Positions 5,622 to 31,129 of a DNA stretch of 64,000 bases are shown here, in pieces. The DNA is from Amphiscolops sp. MND2022 (Eukaryota): assembly GCA_964187785.1 (NCBI GenBank), contig OZ076409.1:21454001-21518000 (forward strand), given 5' to 3'. Made by a program: the position numbers and the translations under genes. The number at the start of each line of letters is the position of its first letter. Position 1 is the first letter of the stretch. The notes beneath the pieces were generated by a model, which saw only the letters and a program-made list of their open reading frames with translations, had not been told where the DNA came from and searched no databases.

Positions 5622-6107
5622 TTTTTAGTCGGCGCTTTTCTTAAGAAAAGAGCCCGACTATTACAGTCACTCGTTTTTTTTATTTAGGTCAGACTCGAAG
5701 CGACGAACGTTAAAATTAACGTTCAACTACTAAATAAGTACTAAACTACTGGACCGCTAAAGGCAAACGGGGAGCGCATTCATTTACTTTATAAACGTTA
5801 CAACATACAAGCCCGGACGGGACTAAAGTCCCCCCCCCCCTTTCAATTTTTTTTCGGCGCTGTGAGACTTTTTTTTCGAAATTTTTTTAATGTCCCCAAA
5901 GGGTCCCCCCTTTGAGTTTTTTGTTATTTTGCTACAGAATGCGTGTTTATAAATCAAAAAGGGTCCCCCTTTTACATTTTTCGGCACTGTGCGACATTTT
6001 CCGAAAGAATTTTTTTTTCGAAAATTTCAAATTTTTTTCCAAAAAAAATGTTTTGCGCTTTTTGAGCCTTAGATATAGCGCCGACTTGAGACGTTCCCGT
6101 CTTGTTT
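5622..6107 (+). mobile_element. Helentron-associated non-autonomous element (HINE/DINE-1-like)
   Basis: 5' TTTTAGTCGGCGC subterminal repeat within a hairpin, a 3' inverted GCGCCGACT, and a terminal stem-loop AGACG-TTCC-CGTCT followed by TGTT. Highly similar to 57762-58249. Confidence 0.7.
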
Positions 6108-9100: not shown

Positions 9101-10393
9101 TTTGTAATTTGGCTCTAACCTGGTCGAGGCTTCTCTAACGAATATAACGAGACAATGCCTAATTAGTACCTAAGCAAACTGACAATATCGATCACGGGTA
9201 AACATCGCATCTTTTGCACCCAATGTACAAACCGGTGCTGTCGTAGTTTTGGGGTTAAATATACCAATTCAACCCAATACAGTACACACATTTAAACATA
9301 CCTACTGGTATACAAACTGGTTTACATGTAGACTCGTATTGGTGCAGAAATAGCGAATGTTGTCACTGGTGACGATATGCGCGCATTCATTTCTTGGGAG
9401 ACTCGGTTGGCCAGGGCATGTTTGTACACTTAGAGTACCGTTTGATTGTTCACATTAATCGGCGGGTGTAGATATTTTATTACACAAGTAAACCACCACC
9501 AGGCTGCTTAATCACTGTGATGTAATCCATCACCCATGTAATATTTAGACAACTCTTTAATCGGCGATATGAATCAGAGAGCTTCATTGTCTTTCTCCCG
9601 CTAATGTGAAACTGATATTCGTCTTAGTGCCAAGTTTAACTAACGTCGAATATGATCTAACCAGGCTCACTGGTAAGGTTACCAACTTGCAATGTTTTCA
9701 GCTGTGAGTAATCCGGAATACGGAGGTGAGTTGAAATTTTCTGTTATCCCTGGCTGCTAAATGTTGAAATGCGCGAATGTAGAATGTTAATTTTATGTAA
9801 GCCCAAGTGCGCACTGAATGTTCAGATACAATTTAAAGAAATTGAAGTTTAAGCTAATTCAAAGCTGCTTTTTTCGTTTGGTTTTAGTCTATAGTGTTGG
9901 ACCGAGAAGTTTCTTTGCTCAGCATTATGTGCATTTGAGAAACTCTCGAAAACTTTTCCTGTACCTTCCGAACGGATTTAGCAATAAAGCTGAGTTTTTA
10001 TTACTGAATTCATATTAAACCAATTACGTTGTCCATGATAAAAAATTAATACTTTGAGATAAAACTTTTTTATCCGTCACCCTATTTCATAAACAGTAAA
10101 ATGTTTGAGAAATCAGCAACCATATACAGTAACAGATTGTCAATAAAAAATAAGAATTTGGCTCGAATGCACCCGCTTCTTACCCAAGCGCTTCCTGGAT
10201 CATGGGATTTATGCTTAGATTTTGAAAGAAACTTTCTGTGGAGTTTTCAAAAGATTTGAATCGGCAAGTTTTTGCAATAACAAAGGGACCGATAATACCC
10301 TCATGGTAACTGGGCGTCTCCTTTATTGCTCAAACCTACAAATGATTTGGCAATGATAAAACACCACTTTTGCTTGCTTTGCACGTGACAGGT

Positions 10394-10869
10394 AAACAAG
10401 CCGGGAACGGCCCAAGTCGGCGCCATATCTAAGGCTCAAAAATAGCAAAAGGACTTCAATATGTCAAAGTATTGGTGAGTTGGGGACCCTTTTATGAAAA
10501 AAAATTTTTGGAAAAAAGTCTCACAATGCCGAAAAAACTGAAAGGGGGGACCCTTTGGGATTTTCCAACATCCATTCTGTCGCAAAACAGCAAAAAAAAT
10601 TGAAGGGGGGACCCTTTGGGGAAAAAAAGTCTCACAATGCCGAAAAAAACTGAAAGGGGGGACCCTTTGGTCTCGCCCGGTATGGTATGTTACGCGGGAA
10701 AACAGGAAAAACCTTTTTGGTTCAGTTCGCTAGGCCAAATGGTGCAATTTGGTGCAATAATATTTTGTAGAACTATTTTGGTCAGTTCAGGTGGTCTTAA
10801 AAAAACACTGACGAAAGAAAAGCCATGACTATAGTCGACTCTTTTCTGAAGAAAAGCGCCGACTAAAAA
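10394..10869 (-). mobile_element. HINE-like element copy
   Basis: AACAAGCCGGGAACGGCCCAAGTCGGCGCC ... GCGCCGACTAAAA. Confidence 0.65.
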
Positions 10870-11667
10870 TCTGCTCTTCTCAAAATCACAACGGGCGTGC
10901 CTCAAGGTTCAATTTAAGGACTTTTTTGTTCTTAGTATACATTTTAGCGAATTTGATTCTTTTACATTCTGTTCCTAGTATATGATCTAATTTTGCACAA
11001 ATCGTGTTAAAGCAACTTGACTATTTTCATAAACGACACATCCCTTATGAAATTAGGCGGACCAAACCAATCGAATGTGCAAAACGATTTTGCCGCAATC
11101 AGTACTGTTCTCATGAAACTGCAATTAGTTTCTATTAATTAATTTAAATTAATCAGTACTAATATTGATAAGTTTGAAAAAATTGATTCCCATCTTAGGA
11201 CTACCAAGTGATATAAAAATATTTAGCAAAAAATCAGAACCATGTAGATACTATGATCTTTATATCGATAGGAATTTACGTTTTGCCAACCATTTAATTG
11301 ATGTCAAGAAGTTAAAAACATTTCTGGGTATGAAACAATAATATCTGCTAAAATTCTATCCTTCATATACAAACAAAAATACTTCGAGCTTCTTTACAAA
11401 AAACGGGTAAACTTGATATGAAAATTTGACGGTTCTTTAACTTTGACTAGAGAAAAAGAAGTTTCTAACCAAGCTAATTTTCCTGAGTCAACGCGCTATG
11501 TCAAATTGATTTTTTTGGATGCAATGTAAACAAAATACTCAAATTAGCTCAGGTGAATGACTTTCTATTGCGTTAAAATGACCTATGCTTGGATTTTGTG
11601 TCGAGTTGAGTTTTTTATTCAACTTAATTCATTAGCCGGGAACGGCCCAAGTCGGCGCCACGCCCAA

Positions 11668-12555
11668 GTTTTTAGTCGGCGCTTTTATTAATAAAAGAGC
11701 CCGACTATTACAGTCACTCGTTTCTTTTAAGACAGACTCGAAGCGGCGAACGTTAAAATTAACGTTCAACTACTAATTACAGTACTACTAAAATACTGGC
11801 AGCGCATTTAAGATAGTGAAAGGGTCCCCCTTTCAGTTAGTCCTTTTTTATCGTAAGATACAAAACCGGACGAGACTCTAGGGTCCCCCTTTAAGTTTTT
11901 TCGACACTGTGCGACTTTTTTCTGAATTTCTTTCTGTCTCCGAAGGGTCCCCCTTCAAGTTTTCTGATATTTTACAGAAGTTTCAAAAAGCCCAAAGGGT
12001 CTCCCCCTTCAAGTTTTTCGGCACTATAAGACTGGCTAAAAATTCTAATTTTTAGATTTTTCGTTTTTTCTCGAAAATTTTTTTAATGTCTCGAAAGGGT
12101 CCCTTCAATTTTTTAAATATTTTGTAACAATAGATTTTAAACAATATCAAAGGGTCCCCTATTTTTAGATTTTTCGGCACTATGAGACTGTTCAAAATTG
12201 TCATTTTTCGTCTAAATTTAGGTTTTCACAGAATACATTTACCAATAATTTTTCCGAAACTATCCAAAACTTGGACGTAATATCCTGAGTAAAGCGCTAT
12301 ATCCGAATTTTTGACGTTATATCCGAATTTTTGACGTTATATCCGAATTATATTCCGTTTTACCAAGGAGGAGGCGGAGGTTCAAAAAAGCGCTCCCATT
12401 TGGGCCAGCACGCTATATCCGAAGTTTGAGACGTTACACCCCGCAACAAATTGGGTTTTCAAAAAACCCAAAGGCTCCCCCCTTTTACAATTTCAAAAAG
12501 TTTGAGCTTTTTGAGCCTTAGATATGGCGCCGAATTTAGACGTTCCCGTCTTGTT
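11668..12555 (+). mobile_element. HINE-like element copy with internal tandem repeats
   Basis: TTTTAGTCGGCGC ... AGACGTTCCCGTCTTGTT; internal TATATCCGAATTTTTGACGT repeats. Confidence 0.65.
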
Positions 12556-13944
12556 CGAATATGCAAAGGGCATTATTGTGAAAATTGCATCAAATATACA
12601 GTGCAAAAAATACCTAATGGATAACCATAAGACTCGAAAACCGCTTTTCCTAGCTCGAAACATCAAAAACCCAATTTTTGAAAAACTTTCGAATTTTTTT
12701 CTTGCCGGAAAAAGTCTGATAGTGCCGAAAAACGAAAAACCCAAAAGGAGACTCTAAGTTTTCAAAACTGTTTTTCCAAGCCATTGACTTTTAAAAAGTA
12801 AAAACCCTTTGACCAAATGGATATTTTATTGAAAAAAGTTTCCGAAAAAACCGTAGTTCTTTTTCACAGTTGAGAAAATTTCCCACTTATGGTCTTTTTA
12901 GTCGGCATCAGTCCCACAGGAACTAAGAATAACCAAAGATGTCATTCTTAAGACTCGGAAAGCGGTTTTCGTTTTCGTCAACAGAAAACTTGAAATAGAG
13001 TGAATTTTTTAAAATGTCGTTGATAAGTCGCATAGTGCCGAAAAAATTTAAAGGAATTTTCTGTGCTCGCAAAATGCTTTGTTTTTGTTAAAAAAGAATA
13101 GGGTGGGGGTGTTCGTTAAAGAAACTCAGAGAAAATACGTCGCATAATGTCGAAAAAAAGCCAAAGCAAGCATAAAAAACTTGGTTTTGTGTTGGACTCC
13201 AACCCACGGACTGCTGCTTCTCAGGCCTCGTCACCAGTCCTGGAAATCTGCGTTACTCAGTGGGCCAAATTTCGAAATATATGACCCTTTCAAAACTTGT
13301 AAAAGTGGATGCTTTGAAGGAAGTTCATGCCTTTGTTCTTTTCAAAATCTTGCAGCCAATTTATCGATTGAATTAAAGTGAAGTCGAGAAAAGTTGTGAG
13401 GTATTATTGGAAAATAAAATAAAGGTTTTGGCAGTAATACGACAAGTTTTTTGTTTTAGTTTGTCCAACACTATAGAATACTCGTTAGCTTGTTCCCTTC
13501 TGTCTGTTGCTTCATTTTCTCAAATAAATTCAATGAACGTAACATTTTGCCTAAAATTTACAATTTTTTCATTCTTACCCATTCTAGCATATACGACTTC
13601 AGTGCGTTGCACACCGCCTTTTTCTATTCACACTCTAAAGTTAATTCTTGTGTGTTGAAATAATTTAAAATCAATTGTGGTGAATTACAGATGTCTACGG
13701 GTCTTTGAGGTATAAAGTGAAGTTCTCTTCCTTTATTCGAAAAAACTTGCAGAAAGAAGTATATGTAGTATTTTCTCTCTTCTTACTTCAAATAAGCTCT
13801 GTAAATATTTTTAACCAATAAGAATGGGCCATCTCGAGAGCTGCCATTCAGAAGAGGGGATAGCCTCGAAATTGTAACCCAATCTGGCAACTTTTTATAC
13901 CTTCGTGTATCATTATTCCAGTGATCCGGCAAAAGTAACGCGAC

Positions 13945-14254
13945 AGTAGTAGTGGAAATCCCGATACTGGCCACAAAAACCCCAAAAATTAAAAGTCCTC
14001 AAAACCATTGATTTTAAGTACTTTTTAGAAAACATATCATTAAAAACAATGGTTTTCCGATACTGGCCAACAAAACGCCAAAAATTAAAAGTCCTCAAAA
14101 CCATTGATTTTAAGGACTTTTTAGAAGACAAATCATCAAAAATAGTGTTTTTATCATGAAGCAAAAATTCACTAACCTCTATGATGCAATGTGTAATAAT
14201 AACACGTTGCTGTACAGCCAGCGTTGCTGTACAGCCAGCGTTAATGTACAACCA
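13945..14254 (+). repeat. Left TIR of the Polinton (310 bp)
   Basis: Reverse complement of 28682-28991, with 2 substitutions seen. Contains two ~96-bp direct repeats (starting 13961 and 14057) and the first three copies of a 17-bp repeat. Confidence 0.95.
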
Positions 14255-14318
14255 ACGTTGCTGTACAGCCAGCGTTAATGTACAGCCAACGTTAATGTAC
14301 AACCAGCGTTAATGTACC
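14204..14318 (+). repeat. 17-bp tandem repeat RCGTT(GC/AA)TGTACARCCA, ~6.7 copies
   Basis: Units start at 14204, 14221, 14238, 14255, 14272, 14289 and 14306. Only 3 copies are present at the right end of the element. Confidence 0.9.
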
Positions 14319-14362
14319 GGCGCATACGTTATTCTTATATAACTACAACTAACATTGATTCG

Positions 14363-14608
14363 TCTCCCATAGCTTAGTGGTTATAGCATTGACTAAAGTT
14401 AAGGCTTCGGCCGGAGTGTTTGGGGTTCACTTCTATCCAACGTCCCCCAGTCTTTGTTACAACTTACATGCTATGGGAGAATAATCACCAATGGCACAGT
14501 TCTTAAAAAGGATAATCCCTGCTGTGGAAACTCTTAGTGGAACGGACTCCCGATGGGCTTTGAGTTTACCATAGGCATGTCAATACCAATGGCATGCCTA
14601 TGGGTTTT
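14363..14608 (+). ncRNA. Candidate Pol III-transcribed tRNA-like structured RNA inside the Polinton
   Basis: A-box TAGCTTAGTGG at 14370-14380. TCTCCCATAGC pairs with GCTATGGGAGA (11 bp). There is a GGC-TTCG-GCC tetraloop, a weak B-box-like GGTTCACTTC, and a 14-bp terminal hairpin (14569-14603) followed by the first T4 run at 14605. Confidence 0.5.
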
Positions 14609-14636
14609 GTATTTTTCAACTTTTTCATCTTAATAA

Positions 14637-15464
14637 ATGTATGAAACTCCGTCTCTTCATAAGTTTGGTTATTCTAGTGAACAGCTAAAACTGAGGGAAT
14701 ATCAGGAGCTAAAAGATATGATAAAAAGTCAAGAAAAATTAGCCCAAATAACACATTCCAAATTGAAAGAAGATTTGCAACGCGATTTTGAAAATGACAT
14801 AGAAAATCAAGTAGAAGAAAAAATGCTAGACGCGACAGCTTCCGCGGTAGCTATCACAAAGGCGCATCAAACACTAGACCCACAGGAAATTCAAGATGTT
14901 TTATTAAACACAAAGTTAATGAATGATATTTATTCCCAGTTTTCAGACCTTTCAAAAACCATAAATAAATTAGAACAAAGTATGAAAAAATCTTTCGCCG
15001 AACAAAGAACTGCTTTAGTAAATGAGGTACTAAATTTAATACACAACAATAGTTTTGAAATGTTAACAGTCCGTAATTTAAAGTTTATGAGTCAGGTGGG
15101 CCAAGCTGGAAAGATTTTAAATGAAGATGAAATAAGTAATATTCTTAATGGCCTAGATCAAAATAAAATTACTATAACTAACAACATAATTCAACTGCTT
15201 TATGACAAAGGTTTGTTCGATTCCTTTCCCAATAAAGATCAAGCTTTTGCAAATTATCTAACTTTCAGTGAAACATACCTCTTGGAAAAGTATGGAAAAA
15301 CAATACCTACTTCAGATGGAGAATATTATCTGTCTGATTTAGAATATTCTACCAGACAATCAATTCTGGAGTCATTGAAAAAAGACAATTTTAAAGACCT
15401 TGTTGATATGAAACACAGAATGAAATTAACACCAACGGAAATAAATTTCATTTTATATGATTAA
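14637..15464 (+). CDS. Polinton ORF1, hypothetical helical/coiled-coil protein (275 aa)
   Basis: Long open frame with a TAATAAATG start, abutting the next gene. No motif recognised. Confidence 0.75.
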   Translation: MYETPSLHKFGYSSEQLKLREYQELKDMIKSQEKLAQITHSKLKEDLQRDFENDIENQVEEKMLDATASAVAITKAHQTLDPQEIQDVLLNTKLMNDIYSQFSDLSKTINKLEQSMKKSFAEQRTALVNEVLNLIHNNSFEMLTVRNLKFMSQVGQAGKILNEDEISNILNGLDQNKITITNNIIQLLYDKGLFDSFPNKDQAFANYLTFSETYLLEKYGKTIPTSDGEYYLSDLEYSTRQSILESLKKDNFKDLVDMKHRMKLTPTEINFILYD

Positions 15465-15467
15465 TAA

Positions 15468-16172
15468 ATGGAACAAAAACTCTATCCCTCCCTGACCCCA
15501 ACGGCCTCTCCCCCCGCACCATATGATGTAGAATCAATGATAAATAAGCGATTGCAAAGCGCGTTGCAAAACGAATTACAAAAAGTAAATAGTTTCAATA
15601 ATTCTATTCAAAACATTAGTCTAATGATGAAATATTATGAAATGGAAGAAAAGAAATACAAACAGAAATACAACAAATACAAGCTAATAAATAACCTAAT
15701 TAACTCCATCGATGGCATTATAGTGATTGGAACAACTTCAGCATCAATCTCACTAAGTATTACTGGTGTGGGTATTATAGTGGTTCCAATCGCTGCAGGA
15801 GTTGGTTGTACAACTGGTATTCTTGTTAAGATTTGTTCCAGTTATTTGAAGAAAAAGGAGCAAAATTATAAACTTAAGTACACTATTATTCAGAAGACTC
15901 TTGACGACTTTAGACAACTTTATGTTACTAGCCTAAAAGATAATCATATAGATGAAAAAGAATATCACCGATTTGTGACTCAATTTGAAAATTATCAGGT
16001 AGCTTCGCGCGCGACAGCTAACACAGCTTCGAGCACAGCTTCGCATACAAAATCACAAGTAGCTTCACACGCGACAGCTAACACAGCTTTGCACGCGACA
16101 GCTAACGCGACAGCTAACACAGCTTCACACACACCACCAACAATACCACTTAAACCACACAATTTTTTATAA
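15468..16172 (+). CDS. Polinton membrane protein (possibly PW-like), 234 aa
   Basis: A Gly-rich hydrophobic segment (GIIVIGTTSASISLSITGVGIIVVPIAAGVGCTTGILV) is flanked by Lys-rich helices. N-terminus reads LYPSL/PTASPPAPY. The PW assignment is tentative. Confidence 0.75.
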   Translation: MEQKLYPSLTPTASPPAPYDVESMINKRLQSALQNELQKVNSFNNSIQNISLMMKYYEMEEKKYKQKYNKYKLINNLINSIDGIIVIGTTSASISLSITGVGIIVVPIAAGVGCTTGILVKICSSYLKKKEQNYKLKYTIIQKTLDDFRQLYVTSLKDNHIDEKEYHRFVTQFENYQVASRATANTASSTASHTKSQVASHATANTALHATANATANTASHTPPTIPLKPHNFL

Positions 16173-16284
16173 TTACTTTATTCAATTTTAACATAAAAAA
16201 TAAAATAAAAATTAACACTAATAATTGAAAAATATACTATTGAAAAATATGCTGCTATTAAATTCATAAATTTATTATAAATAA

Positions 16285-19200
16285 ATGGAGAACTGCAGTA
16301 TTTGTAATTCCGATTATAAAAAAGCTTACAAGTCTGATCATCTAAAATCAATAAAACATTTACAAAAATTAAATCAATATTATTGTAAAAAATGTAATAC
16401 ATTTATGCCATTGTCTGACAAGTCTAATCATCTAAATTCAGATGAACATAAAAACAAAACCAAACAACAACGCGAAGCTACACAAATTTGGTGTGAAGAT
16501 TGTGACAAATATATAAGTAATTCAAGACATTTCCAAAGTGAAATTCACACGTTAAGAAGTCAAAACAATGCTACAAAAAACGCATTTGGTAATACACTAC
16601 ATGGAGTAGGAACTGGCGTAGAAATAATTGTGAATGAAAAAACATACAATAAACTGAGAGTAAATCCAACAAATCATCTTGAAGAACAGATTAATGATTT
16701 ACTAAATAAAAATTACTTTCCCCGATACAAGTTCCAATTGAGTTATTTAGCTAAGTTTTCAAAAATAGTTAGTGGGCAGAGCTTCGCAGAAGAAATTGTA
16801 TTTCACAAATGGGTTAAATCAGATTTTAATTACAATTACACGCAGATTGCCCTCGGCACAAACCCAAATATTCACAACATATTAATGCAGAAATTAGATG
16901 ATGAACAATTAGAAGGATCAGGTTTTGTGTTAAACGGTATTGTCAATGTTATATTAGAAATTTATAAAGTCAATGATATTCAAGCTTCTTCATGGGTTGA
17001 GTTGCCAGAAAAATATAAGAATAATAAATCAATTATAAATATAAAAAATGATGATCAATTTTGCTTTTTGTGGTGCATCCTAGCACACCTTTTTCCCGTT
17101 GAGGATCATAAAAATAGAACATCAAATTATTCAATGCACACGAACAAACTACTCATTTTAAATGGTTTAGAATTCCCCATGAAAATTAAAGATTTTCCCC
17201 AAGTTCGAAAACTTAAATAATTTAAACGTAAATGTATTTGAACTCACAAAAACAGTTTTAACACCAATCCATATCAACACAAACTATGATCAACCACAAA
17301 TAGATTTATTATTATATCAAAATCTCTATTGCTTAATAACAAAATTGCATTGTCTAATAAATAAGGATTCGCACATGAAATGGGTGTGTAGAAGATGCCT
17401 AACTGCATTTAGTTCTGAGGATATTCTCAGTCAACACATTGACCGTTGTCAAAAACAACAACCAACTAATATCACATTCAGTTGGAAGGATCACTTAAAG
17501 TTCGAAGATTATCATATGAAAGTTCCCATACCAATAAGAGTATATGCAGATTTTGAATGCATTAATCAACCAACAGACGACCCCAAAGTATTATTTAAAC
17601 AAATTCCAATTGCAGTAGGATTTTATATAATTTCACCATTTGGTAATAATTACAGCTCATACTTTGGTGAATCGTGTGTAACATGGTTTGTAAATGAAAT
17701 GTTGACTCTGGAAAACATTGCTAGTAACTATTTTGAAACAAATTTACCTCTTGAAATAACTCCTGAAGAACATCAATCATTTCAACAATCCAAAGTGTGT
17801 TGGCTTTGCGAACGAAAGTTAGACGGTGAGGGCGAAGCTACGCATAACGTTCGAGATCATGATCATCTTACAGGCAAGTACCGAGGAGCAGCCCACAACA
17901 AATGTAATTTAAATTGTAAAAAAAAGTCAAGTTCGTTTGTTCCTATATTTTTCTATAATTTCAGTGGTTATGATTGTCATTTAATTTTTGAAGAACTCTT
18001 AACATCAGCTTATAATCTAAAGTTACCAATAAATATTATACCAAAGTCAATGGAAAATTATGTAAGTGTGCAAGTAGGTTGTTTAAGGTTTTTAGATTCA
18101 TACAGATTTTTGAGTAGTAGTCTACAGAAACTTATAACATCATTAAATGATTTTCCTTATATGCAAAATGAGGGCCTAACTGATGATTTATTTAAGGAAA
18201 AACTAGCTTATCCATACGAAAAATTCAATCTTAACAACCTGCTTGAACCACTAAATCTAACAAAAGAGGACTATTGGTCAACACTGAATCAATCTTACCC
18301 ATGTGAGGATGATATAAAAAGAACCCAACAATTGATTGACACTTACATTACAACAGCACAAGAACTAACAGAATTGTACTTAAAAATGGATGTACTACAA
18401 CTCACTGACGTGTTCGAAAACTTTGTTGAGAAGTCTACACTTGAATACGGCATCAATCCTTTGTACAGTTACTCTTTACCTGGTTATACATGGAAAGCTG
18501 GTTTAAAACTTACTAAAATTAAATTAGATTATATAAAATGTAAAGAATTATTATTACTTTTAGAAAACAATATACGTGGAGGAATTTCAAGTGTAATGGG
18601 ACCCAGATTCATTGAGTCAAATGAAAATACTAAATTACTGTACATTGATGCAAATAACTTGTATGGATGGGCAATGAGTCAATACCTTCCTACAAGTGAA
18701 TTCGAAAAACTAGATTTCCCAGAAGAGTACGAATTAGAACAAATGATAGAAGATTTGAGATTTATTCCAGACAATAATGAATTTGGATACTTTATAGAAT
18801 GTGATTTAGAATATCCAGCAGAAATTAAAGAAAAAACCGAAAACTTTCCACTTTGTCCTTATCAAACAAAAGCCGATCCAAATCTTTTCTCAGAATACAT
18901 GAACAGTGTAAAACAATCCAACTACAAACCAACCGAGAAACTTATGTGTGACCTAACAAATAAATATAATTATATGATGCACTACAGGATGTTCAAGTTT
19001 TACACCCAGATCGGGATGAAAGTAACAAAGATTCACACAATCTACCGGTTCAAACAATCACTTTAGTTAGAAAAATACATTAATCATAACACACAAAAAC
19101 GCACCAAAGCAAAAACAAACTTTGAGAAGGACCTCTACAAATTAATGAACAACGCTTTCTTTGGTAAGACTATGGAAAATGTTAGAGACCGGACTAATTT

Positions 19201-20113
19201 AGAGTTTATCCCTCACACCAATATTGATCAAATAATAAAAAGACAATCGAAGTTAAGCTTCAAAGGAATTACTAATCATTACTCCGAATTCAGTGTTTAC
19301 AAGTTTGATAAGGAAAAAGTAATTTTTGATAAACCAATATACTTGGGGTTTAGTGTTTTAGAACTGAGTAAATTGTTAATGTATGAGTTTTATTATCACA
19401 AATTACAACCATATTATAACAATAAAATTAAACTGCATTACATGGATACAGACTCATTCATTCTAAGTATTAAAACTGGAGACCTTATAAATGATTTGGA
19501 ATACTTCAAAGATGATTTTGATTTCAGCGAGCTCGACCCAAGTCATGAGTTGTACAACTCAATCAACAAGAAAGTTATAGGTAAAATGAAAATAGAAACA
19601 TCACCAATTATTGAATTAAACAACTTCGTAGCTTTGAGATCTAAATCATATTCTTTTAGCTATGGCTCAGCACAAAAGCTAACACAAGAGGCAAAGCAAA
19701 GAACAATTCAGAAATCAAAACAAAAAGGAATACAACATACACCAATTTATTCACAATTTATAAATTCATTATTTAACTCTGAAACAACAACTGCAACTAA
19801 TTATTCTATTAGAAGTAATGCTCACAACTTAACTGTTCAGAAACAAGATAAGCTAGCTTTGAATCCTTTTGATGACAAAAGACTGTACTTGAATCCAATA
19901 CAAAGTTTATCATGGGATAAACACACACAAAAAGGTGATTGTCCTTGTATACTTTGTATAAAATTAGTTGGTTTGTATTACACCGAACTGAGCACAAGGG
20001 ATGGCACAAGCCTCCCAGATGAAGAAATATACTATAACATTTGGACTCTGAAAGAAAAATTGAATCATCAACAGCTTTTAAATCTGATAAGTGATCGGGC
20101 CCATTTATTGTGA
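16285..20113 (+). pseudogene. pPolB: Protein-primed family B DNA polymerase (~1275 aa reconstructed), disrupted
   Basis: Three N-terminal C2H2-type fingers; vOTU-like DDQFCFLWCI; ExoI YADFE; endonuclease VII-like CWLC..RDHDHLTGKYRGAAHNKCN; polymerase motifs YIDANNLYG, KLMNNAFFGK and YMDTDS. A +1 frameshift near 17195-17200 (gattttccccaag) and an in-frame TAG at 19064-19066 (expected Trp) separate ORFs 16285-17220, 17345-19066 and 19145-20113. Confidence 0.93.
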
Positions 20114-20244
20114 TTACTATCGTGATAACTATCGTGACGCACAGCTTTCGCGATAGCTTTCGCACACATCTTTTATAATTAGAAATATCATTTATTATCA
20201 TTTATAATTATTAATCTATGATTCATCATTCCTCTCATATCAAA

Positions 20245-21492
20245 TCAAATGAGGTCAAAATGCCTTTGCCCATCACTACTAATACTTATTAGTTTTGGGG
20301 TTAATACAAGTGCATAAGCTATATAATCTGCTACATCAATGGCAGCATTAAATTTAAATTCTAAACGGATTGACTGACTCGCAATGATATCCCTTTGTTT
20401 GCTGAGGTCAAATACATAAAAATTATAATTTGTTCTGAATTTGTTCAAATCAATAAATGGATTGAGTAAGTTAGTTTCACTATTCAAGTGATAAAAGTTT
20501 TCAATTTCACTATATGCTTGATCATATTTGTCGCGGTCGTAATCACATTCAATCCCATCATCGGAATATTTTTCTGATCCTATTTTACAAACAGCATTAC
20601 TAATTGGCAACCGGTCAAACACTGCATTATCATGAACCTGAGAATCAATTTTATTTCTAGCTTGAAATCCAACAATCACAAAAGTTGGAGTCGATGTTCC
20701 CGAAGATCCGCCTGCGCTGCCTAATTCAAATGTCCAATTCGAATTCGTGTTAACATCTTTTCTAAAAATAATTCGTTCCGTGTAACTCAATTCGGTTGGA
20801 TCTTTATTTAGAATTTGGTCCATGACAAGTTGTTGGTTTTCGATACTGGGAACATAGTGTGGGATATACCAACCAATGTCTTTAATAACCACTTTTGCAG
20901 CATCCACTCCAACACTTCTTAAAATGGCGTCATTGTTAGTGTTCCGTTTGAGTGTAAGAGTGTAGCCCAACCCATAAGTTATTTTTTCTTGATCAGCAAA
21001 TCCAAACAAGTCTTTTAGTTTTATTCTCACAAAAAAGGTTCCTTTCTCATTTTTGTTGTTTGTTAGTTCTTGTCTTCTTATAGTAGTATCTTCTTCAAAC
21101 CCATACATTAATTGACTTGTGGATTTAGTGCTTGTCAGAAGTTTATACATTAAAGAAATCAAGTGCAAATTGTCAACTTTTTCCAGGTGTTTCCCACTAG
21201 AAGTTGTTAATTTGGCTTCACTAAACAGAGAGATTGGCCCAAAGTTAACCAATCCAATTTCATCACCATCAGCAAATCTTGTATTATTGTTTTTAAGTAC
21301 TTCAAATTCTAAACTTAAATAACTATTTTGTAAACAAATATAAGCATCTTCTCTTGGGAAACTAATTGTAGTATTCGAGTTTGTATTGTTAATTGTCGCC
21401 AAACTACTTGGATTATACTTTATGAAATCAATTTTATGAATAGGTTTTTCAAGAGTGTATTTATTTTTTAAAGAAAACATATCTCTGTTCAT
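20245..21492 (-). CDS. MCP: Double jelly-roll major capsid protein (Polinton PY), 415 aa
   Basis: Size and motifs fit Polinton MCPs (SYLSLEF, NFGPISLFSE, LKDLFGF, PTFVIVGFQ, FYVFDLSKQ). The ORF is intact. Confidence 0.85.
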   Translation of the reverse strand: MNRDMFSLKNKYTLEKPIHKIDFIKYNPSSLATINNTNSNTTISFPREDAYICLQNSYLSLEFEVLKNNNTRFADGDEIGLVNFGPISLFSEAKLTTSSGKHLEKVDNLHLISLMYKLLTSTKSTSQLMYGFEEDTTIRRQELTNNKNEKGTFFVRIKLKDLFGFADQEKITYGLGYTLTLKRNTNNDAILRSVGVDAAKVVIKDIGWYIPHYVPSIENQQLVMDQILNKDPTELSYTERIIFRKDVNTNSNWTFELGSAGGSSGTSTPTFVIVGFQARNKIDSQVHDNAVFDRLPISNAVCKIGSEKYSDDGIECDYDRDKYDQAYSEIENFYHLNSETNLLNPFIDLNKFRTNYNFYVFDLSKQRDIIASQSIRLEFKFNAAIDVADYIAYALVLTPKLISISSDGQRHFDLI

Positions 21493-21551
21493 TTATAATA
21501 AAAAATTATTGCGAAAGCTATCGCGAAAGCTCCGCGAAACTACGTCGAAAA

Positions 21552-22478
21552 TTACTCAAACCTGTGGAAAATATTCATACTTTCTAACGTTTTGTTGTTA
21601 GAGTCAAAGTCGAATATGCTTCTTAAAAGTTCTTGTTCATAGTATTTTCCTTGAATAATTTCTCCGTTTTCATCATTTAGAGTGTATGTTACTGGGTTTG
21701 TTTTGTTGATGCTGTGTATTTTAAAAAGTTCTCTATTCCAATTTGTTGTATAACCTTTTGAATAAATGTTCCTTTTGTCAGGAACTCTTACAAAATCCCC
21801 CACTTGGAATTTGGCGAAGCTTTGCGCGAAGCTGCGGTAGCTATCGCGGTAGCTATCGCGCGGTTGTTTCGGTTTATTAACAAAGGTAGGTGGATCTATT
21901 GGTTTTTTATTCGCTTCAAAAGGTGTCATTTTTGTTGTGGTATGGACACGATTATTATACTTTTGTAAAGCAGCATCAAGGTGATTCAACCAGTTACCTT
22001 TACCCTCAATATACATTGGTTCTTTGATTAAGTCCAGAAGTGTTCTATTGAAACGTTCAACAAAAACAGCCTTCAAATCTGAATTAGTTGAATAAATTTG
22101 AATGTTTTGCTCTTTTAAATAGTGTAAAAATGTTGTGTTGTAAAACTCTTTACCTCTATCACTCCATATTTTGTGTGGTTTTCTCTTCTCTTTTTCAATG
22201 AGACTTTTTATTGCAGTTGTTGTACTTTTTCCTGATTTATCTTTGAGGGGAATCGCCCATGCATATTTGGTATGATTGTCAATTATTGTGAAAATAAACT
22301 TGTAGTTTTTGTTGTATTTGCTTAAGTTTGAGCGATCAATTAAATCGATACTCCAACATTCATCTTTATAGTGAGTTTGTATTTGAATTCTTTGAAACTT
22401 CTTAATTACAGGAGAGAATATTTCTTTAGCAATCTGCTCTTTGTGAAGCTCCGCGCGAAGCCCTGCATTTTGATTCAT
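21552..22478 (-). CDS. INT: Retroviral-like DDE integrase, 308 aa
   Basis: WSIDLID, WSDRGKEF and VERFNRTL form the DDE triad; also YNNRVH..TKMTP and FQVGDFVR..KGYTTNW. No C-terminal chromodomain is visible. Confidence 0.96.
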   Translation of the reverse strand: MNQNAGLRAELHKEQIAKEIFSPVIKKFQRIQIQTHYKDECWSIDLIDRSNLSKYNKNYKFIFTIIDNHTKYAWAIPLKDKSGKSTTTAIKSLIEKEKRKPHKIWSDRGKEFYNTTFLHYLKEQNIQIYSTNSDLKAVFVERFNRTLLDLIKEPMYIEGKGNWLNHLDAALQKYNNRVHTTTKMTPFEANKKPIDPPTFVNKPKQPRDSYRDSYRSFAQSFAKFQVGDFVRVPDKRNIYSKGYTTNWNRELFKIHSINKTNPVTYTLNDENGEIIQGKYYEQELLRSIFDFDSNNKTLESMNIFHRFE

Positions 22479-22595
22479 TTATTATAGTTTTATAACAATT
22501 TTTTATAAATAAATGAATAATGATTATTGCTTGCAGAGCTATAGAAATAATTATCAAGATGAAGGAGCCGGCGCGAAAACTAGCGCGGGAGGTGG
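22418..22595 (+). repeat. 178-bp direct repeat, copy 1
   Basis: Matches 24119-24296 with 1 mismatch (offset 1701 bp). Confidence 0.95.
22479..22512. promoter_or_regulatory. 34-bp bidirectional intergenic region between integrase and ATPase 1 (putative divergent promoter)
   Basis: CAT-TTATTATAGTTTTATAACAATTTTTTATAAATAA-ATG; both start codons lie within ATAAATG. Confidence 0.5.
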
Positions 22596-23721
22596 CGCGG
22601 GAGCTGGCGCGGCCAATTGGTATCAGAAAACACGAATTTATAAAGTAATCACAAATCCTATGTTTATTGTATGTTTAATTTTATTTATAGGTATTATTGT
22701 TGTAATATATTGGAATTATATTCGCCCTAGGCAGGTTAAAACAATTAATAAAAAACTACTACAATTTGCAGGGTTCAAATACTCTCATCTGACAAACCAG
22801 GAACGCGAAGCCCCCCAGGATACACGCGAAGCTACGCACAACCATTCTCATTGCAACGCGCATTTCATAATCTATGGCAGTAGTGGCTCTGGGAAGACAA
22901 GTTTTTTAAAGCATTATTTGGCACAACGTCCCCACGACAAGTCCTGTGATAGCCCCCGCAGTTATTTAGTATTTGGGAGAGATGAACGTGAGTTTCCCTC
23001 TCAAAATTTTGTACCACTACTGCAGTTGGAGAAAGTTAGTATTGAATCACTTGCTAATAAAATTGTTGTACTGGATGATGCAGGTGCATACAAGAACCTT
23101 AGATTGAAAGTAGAAGACCTTTTCCGATTTGGTAGACACTTGGGGATTCAAGTGATATACCTTGCTCACTATGCAAAGGATGTTCTTCCAATCGTGAGGG
23201 AAAATTGCTTCAAAATATACCTAACAATTAATAACCCAGATAATTTCTTCGAGTCGATTGGACAAACTTATGCAATAGCTTCCACAATCAAAGAACTTAA
23301 TTGGAAATACTACCGGGATCAGTTAGAATATGGCATAATTGAACTGGACACAAGGAGTCAGAAATTTAAGATACTAAACGACAAGTACAACTTAATTTAT
23401 GATTCGAGCAAACGAAGTAAATGGGGTCCAGAACAACTTGTTGCTTATGAAAGTTACTTTTTCACTGGTGATGAATACAACAGACTCAAAATTTTCTTAG
23501 AGGAAATGTCCGACCAGACAATTGAAATAACACCACTCAACATAGCTTATTATTATGTAGCCTATTGCAAACAAAATAATATTAAAGTAAATGAATCCAA
23601 AATAAAAAACTACGTTGAGCGTATGCAAAAACCACTAATTAGTGATTCAGTTAAAGAGGACTTTAAAAATTTAATTTATGATCAGGCAAAAAGTTTTACT
23701 AAAAATAAACTGAGTAATTAG
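22513..23721 (+). CDS. A32/FtsK-HerA-like ATPase 1 with N-terminal transmembrane segment, 402 aa
   Basis: Walker A GSSGSGKT, Walker B VVLDD, and the FRFGRH...REN motif. Hydrophobic segment PMFIVCLILFIGIIVVIYW. Confidence 0.88.
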   Translation: MNNDYCLQSYRNNYQDEGAGAKTSAGGGAGAGAANWYQKTRIYKVITNPMFIVCLILFIGIIVVIYWNYIRPRQVKTINKKLLQFAGFKYSHLTNQEREAPQDTREATHNHSHCNAHFIIYGSSGSGKTSFLKHYLAQRPHDKSCDSPRSYLVFGRDEREFPSQNFVPLLQLEKVSIESLANKIVVLDDAGAYKNLRLKVEDLFRFGRHLGIQVIYLAHYAKDVLPIVRENCFKIYLTINNPDNFFESIGQTYAIASTIKELNWKYYRDQLEYGIIELDTRSQKFKILNDKYNLIYDSSKRSKWGPEQLVAYESYFFTGDEYNRLKIFLEEMSDQTIEITPLNIAYYYVAYCKQNNIKVNESKIKNYVERMQKPLISDSVKEDFKNLIYDQAKSFTKNKLSN

Positions 23722-23754
23722 CGGAAGCTATCGCGAGAAATTAGTAAAAAAAAT

Positions 23755-24012
23755 ATAGTGATTCTTAGAGAAATTTAGAGAAATTTAGTGATTCTTAGAG
23801 GAATTTAGTGATCTCTAAGAATCTCTAAATTTCTCACTAAATCACTAAGGTTTCACAAAGAGCATTTATTTTCACTAAATTTCACTATAATCTCTAATCT
23901 TAGAGAAATAAATACTCTTAAAGGAATTTAGTGAAACCTTAGAGGGATTTAGTGAATTTGGCTTAGTGAAATTTAGTGATTACATAGTGATTATTAGAGG
24001 AATTTAGTGATT
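23755..24012. repeat. Non-coding array of TTAGTGA/TCACTAA direct and inverted repeats
   Basis: About 7 forward and 3-4 inverted copies; inverted arms of ~23 bp at 23778-23836. Confidence 0.8.
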
Positions 24013-24025
24013 TTTTACTAAATAA

Positions 24026-24130
24026 ATGAATTGCTTAATTTGTAATAAAAGTAGTGAAAAAAGTTTGTGTGATGATTGTAGTAATAAAAAAAGATGTAAA
24101 GATTTCTTTTATTTGGTGATATTTCTTTAG
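24026..24130 (+). pseudogene. Orphan Zn-finger mini-ORF, probably the original 5' end of ATPase 2
   Basis: AATAAATG start. Translates MNCLICNKSSEKSLCDDCSNKKRCK..., with a stop inside the duplicated segment. Confidence 0.45.
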
Positions 24131-24296
24131 CAATCTGCTCTTTGTGAAGCTCCGCGCGAAGCCCTGCATTTTGATTCATTTATTATAGTTTTATAACAAT
24201 TTTTTATAAATAAATGAATAATGATTATTGCTTGCAGAGCTATAGAAATAATTATCAAGGTGAAGGAGCCGGCGCGAAAACTAGCGCGGGAGGTGG
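24119..24296 (+). repeat. 178-bp direct repeat, copy 2
   Basis: Matches 22418-22595. Confidence 0.95.
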
Positions 24297-25299
24297 TAGT
24301 TTTCATACTCACCTTTTTATTATGAAGAATTGTAATACTTTTTATTCATACAAAAATGGTAAAATGTATAGTACATGCATTCAATGTTTTAATAAAAAGG
24401 TGAGGTGTGAATTTTGTAATAAGGAATTAAATAAGAGTTATTTAAGGTCACACGTCAAGAAGCAACACTATAATCAACACTATAATTATAATCAGCACTA
24501 TAATCAGCATACTGGGGGTGATTTGCTTCCGCGACAGCTATCGCGACAGCTAACGCGACAGGTATCACGAGAGCTACAGCGAGAGTTACCACGAGGCGTG
24601 TCTTCACACAATAATAATAATGCGGAAGCTAACGCGAAAGCTATCGCTAATGATGATAATGCGGGAGCTAACGCGGGAGCTAATGCTAATAGTGGTGTGA
24701 ACGAAACTAATAGAACATTAATAGTTGGGCCATCATTTTGTGGTAAGACTCATTTGTTGTTGAATAAATTACGATTGATTCGTTTGGAAGATCCAGAGAA
24801 ACAAATTCGTATCATTACAAGGAGTCCGGAACAATATGAGGATGTGGAGCTTTATATTCAAGGAATAGAAGTGGAAGAAAATGTGGGGGATTTGGAAGAG
24901 TATAGGGGGTGTTGTGTAGTATTTGATGATATGTTAGACTCCAACCAGAAATTGATTGATCCATTTTTTACTAGGGGAAGACACAAATCTTGTGATGTTT
25001 ATTATTTATGTCAGAGTTATTTTGATGCACCAAAAAAGACAGTTAGAAACAATTCGAATATAATAATTTTATTTCAACAAACACTGAAAGATGTAGAACA
25101 TATTCATAGGGACATATCAGGTTTTGATATGTCTTATGAGGAATTCAAAAGTTTGTGCAGAGAGGCATGGAACGAAAAATTCAATTATTTATTAATAAAT
25201 AGATTGGAAGATAAAAATGGGAGTAGGTACAGGATTTGTAATGAATCTAATCCAAATTACAAGATCTTTAATCCACAAACTGATCCTTTAAGTAATTAG
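24214..25299 (+). CDS. A32-like genome-packaging ATPase 2 with N-terminal Zn finger, 361 aa
   Basis: Walker A GPSFCGKT, Walker B VVFDD, and FTRGRHKSCDVYYLCQSY..VRNNSN. C2H2 finger CEFC..HVKKQH. Confidence 0.92.
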   Translation: MNNDYCLQSYRNNYQGEGAGAKTSAGGGSFHTHLFIMKNCNTFYSYKNGKMYSTCIQCFNKKVRCEFCNKELNKSYLRSHVKKQHYNQHYNYNQHYNQHTGGDLLPRQLSRQLTRQVSRELQRELPRGVSSHNNNNAEANAKAIANDDNAGANAGANANSGVNETNRTLIVGPSFCGKTHLLLNKLRLIRLEDPEKQIRIITRSPEQYEDVELYIQGIEVEENVGDLEEYRGCCVVFDDMLDSNQKLIDPFFTRGRHKSCDVYYLCQSYFDAPKKTVRNNSNIIILFQQTLKDVEHIHRDISGFDMSYEEFKSLCREAWNEKFNYLLINRLEDKNGSRYRICNESNPNYKIFNPQTDPLSN

Positions 25300-25315
25300 G
25301 GACTTCGTGAGGAGA

Positions 25316-26341
25316 TTAGGAGATCAAGTTGCTTCGTGCGTAGCTCTGTATATTTTGGTGTTGAGAAGGTGATATGCATTCATACTCCAATAACTTGTCT
25401 ATAATTGCAATAATTTGTTCATTAAGCTGAGGGTTGTCATTTCCTCCAACTTTTTCAAAATAAAGTAGTTTCAATTGATCCACTAATTCGTCTGGGTCAG
25501 ATGGGAGGAAAATGTACTGTTGTGTGGAACTTCGCGAATATTCGCCATTTAATCCACTTCCTGTGAAGCCCTGTGTATAGCTCTGTGATTGGCCTTGTGC
25601 GAAGCCTTGCGTGTAGCCCTGCAATTGATAGCGAGAGTATAATTCTTTAATAAATTGGTATCTGATTGATTTTTTATCTCCATAATTTAGATCATATTTC
25701 ATATCATTTAGGAAAGTATAAATTATGTCCAGGTTATTTATTTGTTTGTCAAATTGTGTATTAGTTACAAAATATTGAAGATCTGGGTCACTAAGATCAT
25801 ATGAATTCCCACTCTCAAAAGTCATTGTTGAACCTTTGATTAGTACTTGCTGTGGGTTATGGGGATTAATTGTGAATAAATTAGGATTGTCTTGTGCGAA
25901 GCTCTGTGTAATTGGTTCTAAACTAAATTGACTTTTGTTTTTGTCATTAAGTAAATTAGAAACTGTTTTTACAATACTAGAATCAACCTGGTTGGAATTA
26001 ACAAGACTTGTAAGAAGTTGATTGTTATGATTTGTAATTTCATTATATTGTTTTATTCCTTCTTTAATAGAATTTTGAAGAGTATTATTATTGTGTTCTA
26101 TTGCTCTTGTCTGATTTTCAATTGCTTGTGTAACCCCTTGGGTTTGTTTGTCAATGGCTTGTAGTTGTTTTTCATTTGATTCCACCTGCTTTGTAGTAAC
26201 AGGTTCAAAAACTTCTTCAAGGTCATAATGAAAGTCTTGCTTCCCTAGTTTCTCTTTTAATCTTTCTTTGTGTACTAAAGATTTTGTTTCTTGTAATTTT
26301 TTTAATTTTTCCAAGTCATCTCGGGTGTGAATTGAATACAT
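25316..26341 (-). CDS. Polinton structural/core-type protein, 341 aa
   Basis: Coiled-coil N-terminus, a GSGL putative cleavage site, and a C-terminal LPSDPDELVDQLKLL..GGN motif that I associate with Polinton accessory proteins. Confidence 0.75.
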   Translation of the reverse strand: MYSIHTRDDLEKLKKLQETKSLVHKERLKEKLGKQDFHYDLEEVFEPVTTKQVESNEKQLQAIDKQTQGVTQAIENQTRAIEHNNNTLQNSIKEGIKQYNEITNHNNQLLTSLVNSNQVDSSIVKTVSNLLNDKNKSQFSLEPITQSFAQDNPNLFTINPHNPQQVLIKGSTMTFESGNSYDLSDPDLQYFVTNTQFDKQINNLDIIYTFLNDMKYDLNYGDKKSIRYQFIKELYSRYQLQGYTQGFAQGQSQSYTQGFTGSGLNGEYSRSSTQQYIFLPSDPDELVDQLKLLYFEKVGGNDNPQLNEQIIAIIDKLLEYECISPSQHQNIQSYARSNLIS

Positions 26342-26354
26342 TTATTAAGTATAA

Positions 26355-26873
26355 TTAGTGGATTTTCCCCAGATACAGGCCTTTACTATTAGTTCTTGCT
26401 TTTCTGTTTGTGTTGCTTGTGTTAGCTGCTTTGCTGCCTGCTTTGCTGCCTTTACTCGACAAACCTTCGCGAAGCCCTTCAGCTTTGTATAACCCCTTCC
26501 CTTGATGAACAAATTTAATAACGTCAGGGGCAGTTGCGGCAATTAATCGTGGATTTTTACTTGCTGCTGCAGTTCCAATATTTGCTGCTATTTCTAGTGC
26601 GCGGCCTGGATTATTGAGTATTTTCTTTCCAACATTTTTGGCTGCAGAACCTAAATGTTTGAAAAAGTCTCCCAATCCTTCACCATCTATTGTTCGTTCA
26701 CTCACAATAAGACTCTTATTTCTGTTACATATCATGCAGTTGCCACGTAATATTTTTACGGGCCTGCCCATCTGTATCCCAGTGTTTGTAATATCTCCAT
26801 AAATATTTGTGGTGGGAGAATAATGTTTTCCACAAACACAATATGAATTATTTATAAATTTATTATAACTCAT
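26355..26873 (-). CDS. Small basic protein with N-terminal Zn-ribbon and amphipathic helix (putative virion protein), 172 aa
   Basis: YCVC...GNCMIC zinc ribbon, followed by IDGEG-LGDFFKHLGSAAKNVGKKIL. Confidence 0.72.
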   Translation of the reverse strand: MSYNKFINNSYCVCGKHYSPTTNIYGDITNTGIQMGRPVKILRGNCMICNRNKSLIVSERTIDGEGLGDFFKHLGSAAKNVGKKILNNPGRALEIAANIGTAAASKNPRLIAATAPDVIKFVHQGKGLYKAEGLREGLSSKGSKAGSKAANTSNTNRKARTNSKGLYLGKIH

Positions 26874-26940
26874 TTATTAGAAAAAAATTTTCATTTTTGT
26901 GGAGCTTCGTGAAAGCTATCGCGAAAGCTATCGCCCAACA

Positions 26941-28000
26941 TCATATTTTGATAATTTGAATTGTGAAGGTGAGTGTCTCCCCGTTGAAATCAACTGAATC
27001 ATGATTAGAGTCCTCAAGGAATAATTGAATGGTGTCCAGTCGTGTTTTGTTAATTGATTTGTACAAAACAGTTGTGGGTTCTTTTATAATTTTATATCCG
27101 GGAGGTGCGCTTAAATTGAAAGAAAATAAAATTTGTTCTCGTATACCATTAACAATTGAACCATCTACGCAGTCGTACTTCAGATGAACTTTATCGGTGG
27201 TTGTTATCATGACTGGTTTTTCTGAAGTGTGAGTTCCGGATGGGTAATCACGTTGTGTAAAACCCAGGACTTTGTTAAGTTTGGAGTTAAAATGAATAGG
27301 GTTTGAGGTTGTTAAAACTGATTTCATCGATATTGTGTCGGGTATTATGTTGAATTCAATACTAAAAACTGTAAGATCTTTTTTGAATTTTGACTTATCA
27401 TCTAATTCATAACCTGAATCAGTAATTATTTGTTTTATGGTATTATTTATTTCAATCAGTTCGTATACACCTGGAACTAAATTTATATCAATAAACTCAT
27501 TCTCAATTTCAAAGTTTGGAATAGTTATAGGAATGTTGCTCTTCATTTGCTTTAAATAGTCAAAATCTTTTTTCGGAAGTTTCTTCTTTTTTATAACTAG
27601 TAAGTAAATATATATTAGCTTTTTCTATAAATTCATAGTAGAGTTTATTATTTTCTAAATCATAAGTTTCAAATAGTTTTTTTATATTTGGCACCACTCC
27701 TGTGTCAAACTCAGGTGCATCGAGTTGTTGATCATTCAGAATAATTTGTAGTTTGTTATTCTTTTCAGTAATGTTATATACAGTGTTGTATACTTCTAAA
27801 CTTGTTACTCCCATCATCCATTTTTCATTTAAAGTGAGAGGAACGTCGAATGAGAAAGATTCTTTTTGTTTAGTCATTTTAAATTCTAGAGTTTCTTGTG
27901 GTTTAGAATGAGTATTTTCAACAATTTCTTGATTAGATTTTGCAATACTTAAAAGAAGAGATTCTTTTTTATCATAAGCTACGAAGGTGGATAGATCCAT
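26941..28000 (-). pseudogene. mCP: Minor capsid protein/penton (Polinton PX), split by a +1 frameshift
   Basis: N-half has PLTLNEKWMMGVTSLEVYNTVYNITEKNN. C-half has PGVYELIEIN..VLGF..VDGSIVNG..PPGYKI..VDFNGETLT. The frames differ by one base, plausibly in the A-run near 27585-27595, and the shifted frame reads straight through (KKLPKKDFDYLKQMK). Confidence 0.82.
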
Positions 28001-28058
28001 TTATTATAGATTAAATTGTTTGAATCCACTAGCGGAAATGTTATTTATAAATTCTTGC

Positions 28059-28235
28059 CTATCTTTTGATAATGTTTTTCTTATGCGATAGCTTCCGCAA
28101 ATTTGTTGTATTTTTTCCATGATTTTGATTGTGAAGCTGTTCTGTGGAGCTGTGCGTGAAATTTTGTGCGTTAGCTGTCGCGAAGCTGTGCGAGATAATT
28201 TTATATTGAGTTGAATAATTATTAATTTTCTTCAT
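28059..28235 (-). CDS. Small hypothetical ORF (58 aa), possibly frameshifted
   Basis: TAATAAATG start overlaps the protease stop codon and the ORF fills the protease-penton gap. A second frame (KTLSKDRQEFINNISASGFKQFNL*) ends just before the penton start. Confidence 0.35.
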   Translation of the reverse strand: MKKINNYSTQYKIISHSFATANAQNFTHSSTEQLHNQNHGKNTTNLRKLSHKKNIIKR

Positions 28236-28657: not shown

Positions 28658-28681
28658 TTATTAGTTATTTTTCATTGTTGC

Positions 28682-28991
28682 TGGTTGTACATTAACGCTG
28701 GCTGTACAGCAACGCTGGCTGTACAGCAACGTGTTATTATTACACATTGCATCATAGAGGTTAGTGAATTTTTGCTTCATGATAAAAACACTATTTTTGA
28801 TGATTTGTCTTCTAAAAAGTCCTTAAAATTAATGGTTTTGAGGACTTTTAATTTGTGGCGTTTTGTTGGCCAGTATCGGAAAACCATTGTTTTTAATGAT
28901 ATGTTTTCTAAAAAGTACTTAAAATCAATGGTTTTGAGGACTTTTAATTTTTGGGGTTTTTGTGGCCAGTATCGGGATTTCCACTACTACT
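28682..28991 (-). repeat. Right TIR of the Polinton (310 bp)
   Basis: Inverted match to 13945-14254; ends ACTACTACT and is followed by the TSD CGCGAC. Confidence 0.95.
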
Positions 28992-31066: not shown

Positions 31067-31129
31067 AACCGACCTAGATGGACAACCATGATTACTCCTC
31101 AATATTGACTGAAATGCTTCGTTGTCGCT

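Follow-up and report, generated by a model that had tools for sequence, protein, structure and literature searches.

A selected, tRNA-derived module in one Polinton family as a candidate RNA polymerase III gene

The Locus and Its Carrier Polinton

The window analyzed in this study is a 64-kb stretch of DNA from Amphiscolops sp. MND2022 (contig OZ076409.1, positions 21,454,001–21,518,000), and the analysis covers one Polinton family in one genome. An element of ~15 kb (13945–28991 of the window) is delimited by an inverted repeat with AGT-repeat termini and bounded by a 6-bp target-site duplication (13939–13944 and 28992–28997). Its capsid (PF21738, double jelly-roll), rve integrase (PF00665), and A32 packaging ATPase (PF04665) were all detected over the cut-off and, together with the AGT-type ends of its terminal inverted repeats (TIRs) and the 6-bp duplication, identify the carrier as a Polinton/Maverick. 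Motifs that we take to be those of a family B polymerase were visible in the translations, spread across three ORFs (16285–20113); Pfam and PDB searches returned no polymerase match.

The outer part of the left TIR (13945–14322, + strand) is closed by 17-bp tandem repeats (14204–14322), and ORF1 (14637–15464, + strand), encoding 275 aa with no Pfam family, lies directly 3' of the segment studied here. The right TIR of this copy (28673–28991, − strand) is short and lacks the segment, and its junction recurs in other copies. A preliminary description had presented the segment as a GC-richer island encoding a candidate tRNA-like Pol III RNA, and the base composition agrees (44.7% G+C vs 32.6% for the whole element).

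All features of the segment are on the + strand. Its putative transcription start, G14362, follows a pyrimidine, is invariant in 94/94 copies, and lies where the conserved block abruptly begins on its 5' side. A rod domain (14363–14480) comprises an 11-bp terminal stem (14363–14373/14470–14480) followed by helices 14379–14394/14449–14464, and within it lies a tRNA-derived head (14370–14394) that is identical to a host tRNA-like head at 22 of 25 positions. A full A-box match (14370–14380) begins 8 nt after G14362. It is followed by a 5-bp stem with a 4-nt loop (14389–14402), a 3-bp hairpin with a C-UUCG-G loop (14403–14412; the other DNA strand reads C-GAA-G), and a B-like box (14424–14433) 55 nt past the start of the A box. 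Downstream of the rod are two weaker hairpins (14495–14567), the least variable stretch, and a 14-bp hairpin (14569–14603) whose loop is free to vary in length and sequence. T4 and T5 tracts (14605–14616; first T4 at 14605) form a putative Pol III terminator. The individual elements listed in the preliminary description (A-box match, TTGAC/GTTAA stem, TTCG hairpin, B-like box, three further hairpins, and T4) are thus all present, as is the complementarity of 14363–14373 with 14470–14480.

The B-box consensus is GTTCRANNC. The B-like box has 6/7 of the specified bases at tRNA-like spacing, with C at 14430 in place of A; the missing base is kept in the host vault and tRNA boxes examined. No variant in this box was common to at least 3 of 98 copies. 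An A box with GTTCR 30–55 nt further on occurred once in the window and in 3/100 shuffles, a pattern picked after the site had been seen. An internal T4 was found in 4/75 copies, each different. The absence of T4 from the segment is weak evidence because such runs are common in the element (10 T4-free runs of at least 240 nt on its + strand). A conserved small ORF was rejected: the longest stop-to-stop frame in the segment has 44 codons, and loop insertions shift the frames. One copy carries about ten clustered changes, which run through the UUCG hairpin and the sequence leading up to the B-like box.

Distribution Among Polinton Copies

A search with a 24-nt head motif (≤3 mismatches) gave 625 sites in the 1.07-Gb genome and none with the reversed control, and a 301-nt query gave 721 candidates. 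Many head-motif matches form inverted pairs ~14 kb apart. In 10/10 paired elements retrieved, the segment makes up the inner half of the TIR at both ends, with ORF1 adjoining one terminal repeat and the protease-side gene the other; left/right homology in these long-TIR elements stops at the T tract (14605–14616). The earlier placement of the segment between the left TIR and ORF1 is too simple: in paired elements it belongs to the TIR itself. In many other elements, the window copy included, the segment is present at the ORF1 end only. The first contig holds 17 unpaired exact matches, one being the window copy; among the other 16, the far end is short and without the segment in 11, carries a variant copy in 2, and did not fall within the retrieved stretch in 3. 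The short right-end junction is of one type in seven loci and the window and of a second type in three (protease end).

At the ORF1 end, the segment is present in 29/30 copies picked by ORF1 and in 78/80 left ends overall, many of the latter picked through the segment; the two cases of loss are each single-copy. This lopsided loss, far more frequent at the protease end than at the ORF1 end, fits a role in cis better than a role in trans. The first 26 exact matches on the first contig (window included) all run into ORF1 or the protease side. Since these 26 sampled copies, out of 625 motif matches, are all embedded in Polinton ends, the segment is not a dispersed SINE, and the multicopy host SINE outside Polintons that the preliminary description had raised against itself was not encountered. 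One young Polinton family carries the segment as a fixed module. In one copy, the inner protease-side TIR, segment included, is inverted and points outward.

In a sister family with 84% capsid identity, eight elements searched to 9.9 kb from the capsid gene showed no segment, one far end being out of range and a single 23-nt match being attributable to chance. It was also absent from four further Polinton elements outside the family. In the sister family, ORF1 lies inside the element, and gain of the segment coincides with a move of ORF1-ORF2 to the left end. Two sister families were seen in the same genome: one has TIRs that are mostly short and AT-rich, with ORF1-ORF2 placed between integrase and capsid, and the other combines that virion module with a polymerase only ~47% identical. 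Their capsids look mosaic. Capsid candidates in the genome number ~2,970 overall. Searches of viral contigs with ORF2, the capsid, and a 52%-identical capsid found no related loci, and neither did searches of metagenome contigs; the exact segment motif had no match in either set, and the capsid alignment offered no usable conserved stretch.

Sequence Constraint

Among 75 left ends, diversity was 1.85% in 14362–14579 versus 12.4% just upstream, and 3.75, 2.96, and 5.45% at ORF1 codon positions 1, 2, and 3. It rose to ~11% in the window containing the last loop and then stayed low to ~14720 inside ORF1, past the T tracts. Shared variable sites numbered 9/218 in the segment, compared with 48/275 at ORF1 third positions (Fisher p = 2e-6) and 25/275 at second positions (p = 0.03), p values that are optimistic because the copies are related. 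In the 29 ORF1-picked copies, a set chosen independently of the segment, substitutions relative to the window amounted to 1.6% in 14363–14480 and 0.2% in 14495–14568, compared with 6–7% in the outer left TIR and 6.3% at third codon positions of ORF1. In eight copies from divergent subfamilies, the difference from the window was 1.4–4.2% in the segment, 14–23% in the outer TIR (two of these eight values rest on short alignments), and 5.5–13.6% in ORF1. These results show that, from G14362 on, the segment is more conserved than the neighboring ORF1 codon positions. Key segment variants occur in many combinations. Site-wise selection accounts for these shuffled haplotypes, and for a loop left free to vary within an otherwise fixed block, better than a recent sweep does.

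Predicted RNA Structure

For the + strand, the predicted folding energy is -88.6 kcal/mol (z = -5.2, with 0/200 shuffles as low), and the − strand has z = -2.6. The 11-bp terminal stem and the last hairpin account for this stability; taken alone, the tRNA-like core (14374–14469) has z = -0.5. Elsewhere in the element, 5 of 250 grid windows reached z ≤ -4.4 (25 shuffles each), four of them in TIRs. The long rod 14363–14394/14449–14480, which the preliminary description gave as an alternative, is the predicted fold. In 34 of the 78 distinct variants in the alignment, the rod model was 98.7% paired, and the terminal stem was predicted in 33/34. Insertions of 12 nt, of which 98 copies hold 12, lie in loops, linkers, or the weakly paired apex. 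A candidate pseudoknot (14421–14425/14445–14449) is paired in 28–34 of the 34 variants, shows no covariation, and is not significant.

Compensatory changes in related copies, to which the preliminary description had looked for support, did not appear: no double change was found in 60 pairs among these 34 variants, and pair measures for the rod did not exceed the shuffle control. The evidence for an RNA fold is for these reasons suggestive rather than proven. At paired sites, 11 variants were common to at least three of 90 copies, of which five keep and six break the pair. In pairs of probability ≥0.99, 5/5 shared variants keep the + strand pair (G-U or standard), three of them as G-U, for which the − strand equivalent is a mismatch. 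Of the six pair-breaking variants, four flank the hypervariable loop, around which the alignment is unreliable, and two lie in pairs of probability 0.81 and 0.34. Rare variants kept the pair in 17/63 cases. Shared variants thus kept pairing more often than rare ones (p = 0.03 including the two weak pairs and 0.003 excluding them), a comparison to be read with the caveat that C>T is the commonest mutation and that 55% of transitions keep a pair regardless. The variant 14460 C>T closes a mismatch. Taken with the predicted fold, the recurrent variants suggest that the long rod and last hairpin are maintained on the + strand.

The tRNA-like or TMER-like cloverleaf of the preliminary description was rejected. 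ARAGORN found no tRNA in the segment, the D stem has 3/4 pairs and the T stem 3/5, and the acceptor cannot close at tRNA distance. The cloverleaf arms were 79% paired among the aligned variants, and shared variants at 14374, 14398, and 14400 break these arms and are unpaired in the rod. An intron-bearing tRNA, considered on account of a short match to the anticodon arm of host tRNA-Lys, was dropped, as no T arm follows.

Origin of the tRNA-like Head

The tRNA-like character of the head itself was borne out, its A box matching host tRNA-derived heads. The first 32 nt resemble host tRNA-Lys at a level attained by 3 and 14 of 1000 shuffles in two copies (197 for tRNA-Arg). A head-like pattern occurs at 14 genome sites, namely two in tRNA arrays, one segment copy, and 11 other host sites that share only ~22–25 nt with the segment. 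A wider head pattern gave 90 rows (control 1), including the LTR head of a BEL/Pao retrotransposon. This host element has a 2138-aa open frame (PF05380, PF03564, and PF18701) and a tRNA-like A/B-box head ~55 nt inside each LTR. The BEL/Pao LTR head and the Polinton segment share a 14-nt A-box stretch and box spacing; beyond the search seed, the similarity is weak (p = 168/2000). The upstream score was at best 1/500 among 23 loci tested, with other family members weaker, and descent of the segment from the BEL/Pao LTR head is unproven on these sequence comparisons. Since the head searches used the segment as their seed, what they show is the existence of a host class of such heads, not which member was the donor; no full-length donor was found among the host tRNA-like heads. 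Vault RNA genes also occur in the genome as large tandem arrays; 49 of these genes were scored, at up to 54 bits, and some have a GATCGA B box. Large tandem arrays of tRNA-Lys genes are present as well. Sites of the vault RNA and tRNA-Lys arrays are C8:47.69–47.86 Mb, C6:59.77–59.79 Mb, and C7:5.23–5.34 Mb.

Comparison With Known Systems

Adenovirus VA RNA I and II are viral non-decoding RNAs with A/B boxes, a 5' end within a terminal stem, and a T-tract end. The segment resembles them in its A/B-box layout, closed terminal stem at the 5' end, T tract, and lack of a decoding role. It differs in its length (~245 nt), its place in a terminal repeat, its off-consensus B box, and its terminator, which lies 125 nt after the stem rather than directly behind it. 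Rfam gave no VA RNA match, and by these tests the segment falls outside that family. The TMERs of murine gammaherpesvirus 68 begin with a tRNA-like 5' part and continue with hairpins and a T tract, an order that the segment shares. In contrast to TMERs, it has no cloverleaf and no T arm beside the acceptor-like stem, and its hairpins (6–14 bp) are short for pre-miRNAs. Judged by the predicted structure, a TMER-type RNA, with an RNase Z-cleavable tRNA fold and pre-miRNA hairpins, is not what the segment would encode.

Host vault RNAs resemble the segment in that the A box at +8/+9 pairs with the strand after the B box, which would give a closed rod of ~110–130 nt. Unlike vault RNA, the segment has no terminator right after the stem, and sequence similarity to the host copies is limited to the A box (shuffle p = 0.02–0.12). 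RF00006 did not match the segment at E 10 in a search that detected a weak host vault-like copy (E 0.002). With tRNA-derived SINE heads, the segment shares an A/B-box head and a decayed cloverleaf, differing in that it is not dispersed on its own. A 2-kb scan at E 5 gave no Rfam match within the segment, and short scans gave weak matches only, the best being RAGATH-11 (19.4 bits, E 0.12, cut-off 79.4) with no genome match. No description of a RAGATH-11 likeness was found in the literature searched. With respect to small self-cleaving ribozymes, neither an Rfam ribozyme family nor a hammerhead core was detected. By the tests run, the segment is not a tRNA, VA RNA, TMER, vault RNA, or SINE.

The nearest published arrangement is that of the Helenus/Cassandra (TRIMp3) LTR boxes (PMC10886601). 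There, a sequence that stems from a small-RNA gene lies in the terminal repeats and keeps TRGCY, YGG, and GGTTC without a working tRNA, and tRNA-like heads occur in non-autonomous LTR elements whose autonomous partners are expected to use Pol II promoters. The segment matches the motifs conserved in Helenus (section 3.5 of that paper) and likewise has its boxes inside terminal repeats. Helenus and Cassandra are non-autonomous LTR retroelements with an RNA template, a PBS, and a PPT; the carrier here, by contrast, is an autonomous TIR DNA element, and its segment has 200 further conserved, paired bases.

Interpretation

The segment is a genuine module of tRNA origin, under selection in one Polinton family, and is likely a Pol III RNA gene. 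According to the reading that we favor, a captured tRNA-type promoter gives rise to a structured non-decoding RNA of ~245–265 nt, likely as a Pol III gene (probability roughly 0.45). A host tRNA-derived repeat is the probable source of the captured head, which then lost its cloverleaf. TFIIIC would bind the A and B boxes, Pol III would start at G14362 and stop at 14605–14616, and the RNA would fold into a closed rod and three hairpins. Among the features of a type 2 Pol III gene, the segment has an A box near the start and a T4 terminator with none inside. On the other side are the off-consensus B-like box, the lack of a double change, the absence from sister families, and low diversity that extends beyond the T tracts. 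The claim of a functional Polinton-borne RNA draws support from constraint, stem-keeping, and strand-specific variants, and it is weakened by the restriction of the segment to one family, as absence from related elements is an outcome that the preliminary description had itself listed as refuting.

Adenovirus VA RNA acts as a decoy for host RNA-silencing and double-stranded-RNA proteins. By analogy, the most likely role of the putative RNA would be that of such a decoy or competitor. The full proposition, namely that an actively spreading Polinton took a host tRNA-type promoter into its terminal repeat and turned it into a Pol III decoy of its own against RNA silencing by the host, is tentative and somewhat unlikely to hold in every part.

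Action in cis on ORF1-ORF2 expression is the main alternative, rather unlikely but kept alive by the distribution and the conservation. The segment would then be a structured leader, an attenuator, or an upstream control region, needed since ORF1-ORF2 moved from the middle of the element to the left end, and its right copy would be a by-product of TIR copying. Both the lopsided loss (near-universal presence at ORF1 ends, absence from 11 of 16 far ends of single-match elements) and the conservation running on into ORF1 speak for it, as does the coincidence of segment gain with the ORF1-ORF2 move. A leader through the segment, however, would hold eight upstream ATGs and -88.6 kcal/mol of structure, loop insertions would shift its upstream frames, and the intact A box and 5' edge would be left unexplained. 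Moreover, ORF1 need not use the segment as a leader, because its AAATG start context is common to all 12 ORF starts checked in the window Polinton and because in many copies no segment accompanies the protease gene.

That the segment works as DNA, either as a TFIIIC-bound boundary shielding the element or as a single-stranded fold or packaging mark in replication, appears quite doubtful. Such a role would suit its location in the terminal repeats, where long-TIR copies have it on either side of the genes; other TIR windows fold equally well, and tRNA-like heads lie in the terminal repeats of an unrelated host LTR element. GCGAAGC-type motifs, which form stable DNA mini-hairpins, are also enriched in the element (GCGAAGC/GCTTCGC, 15 in 15 kb vs 2 in 49 kb of flank). 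The rod is weak under DNA folding parameters (z = -1.8 and -2.2), however, and the recurrent variants favor G-U on one strand. A boundary would not require 200 conserved bases past the boxes, and sister families replicate without the segment.

Neutral carriage of a recently captured host repeat, suggested by the restriction to one family, the head match to host tRNA-derived repeats, the decayed cloverleaf and B box, the lack of covariation, and the frequent loss of the right-end copy, is improbable and already disfavored by diversity below that of ORF1 second codon positions around an internal hypervariable loop, the sharp 5' edge, the low divergence between subfamilies relative to outer TIRs and ORF1, and the lack of a full-length donor among the host heads found.

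Literature searches, with subscription papers and Repbase entries outside their scope, found no paper on a Polinton non-coding RNA and none combining Polinton and VA RNA. In the passages of PMC8502044 searched, the terms "non-coding", "Pol III", and "RNA polymerase" are absent, and the one mention of tRNA genes is in a legend concerning other viruses. PMC8363768 contributed nothing further. Polintons have hitherto been described through their proteins. A selected module that recurs in hundreds of young copies of one family, set against segment-free sister families, offers a natural comparison that bears on whether Polintons counter host silencing and on the origin of viral Pol III RNAs such as VA RNA. 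If the decoy reading were true, VA-like RNAs would arise repeatedly in the Polinton-adenovirus lineage, and gain of the segment may have aided expansion of the family. Under a cis or DNA role too, a 250-base non-coding stretch conserved above the neighboring protein would be a working part of a Polinton.

Other Features of the Window

The motif AATAAATG was present at 10 of the 12 ORF starts checked, on both strands and including the divergent integrase/ATPase pair (14632, 15463, 16280, 22483, 22508, 24209, 26346, 26878, 28005, and 28662), and its placement suggests that AATAAATG is likely a shared initiation signal. A 178-nt duplication (99%; 22418–22595 and 24119–24296) causes both ATPase-like ORFs to start identically. 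Insertions of 12–13 nt with a GCGAAGC motif recur in the TIRs, in segment loops, and, in frame, in the ORFs of many copies. Outside the Polinton, a host repeat forms tandem units of ~580 nt at 56019–58249 of the window, and scattered fragments of the same repeat lie at 5622–6106, 10390–12555, 30678–32036, and 48671–49058.
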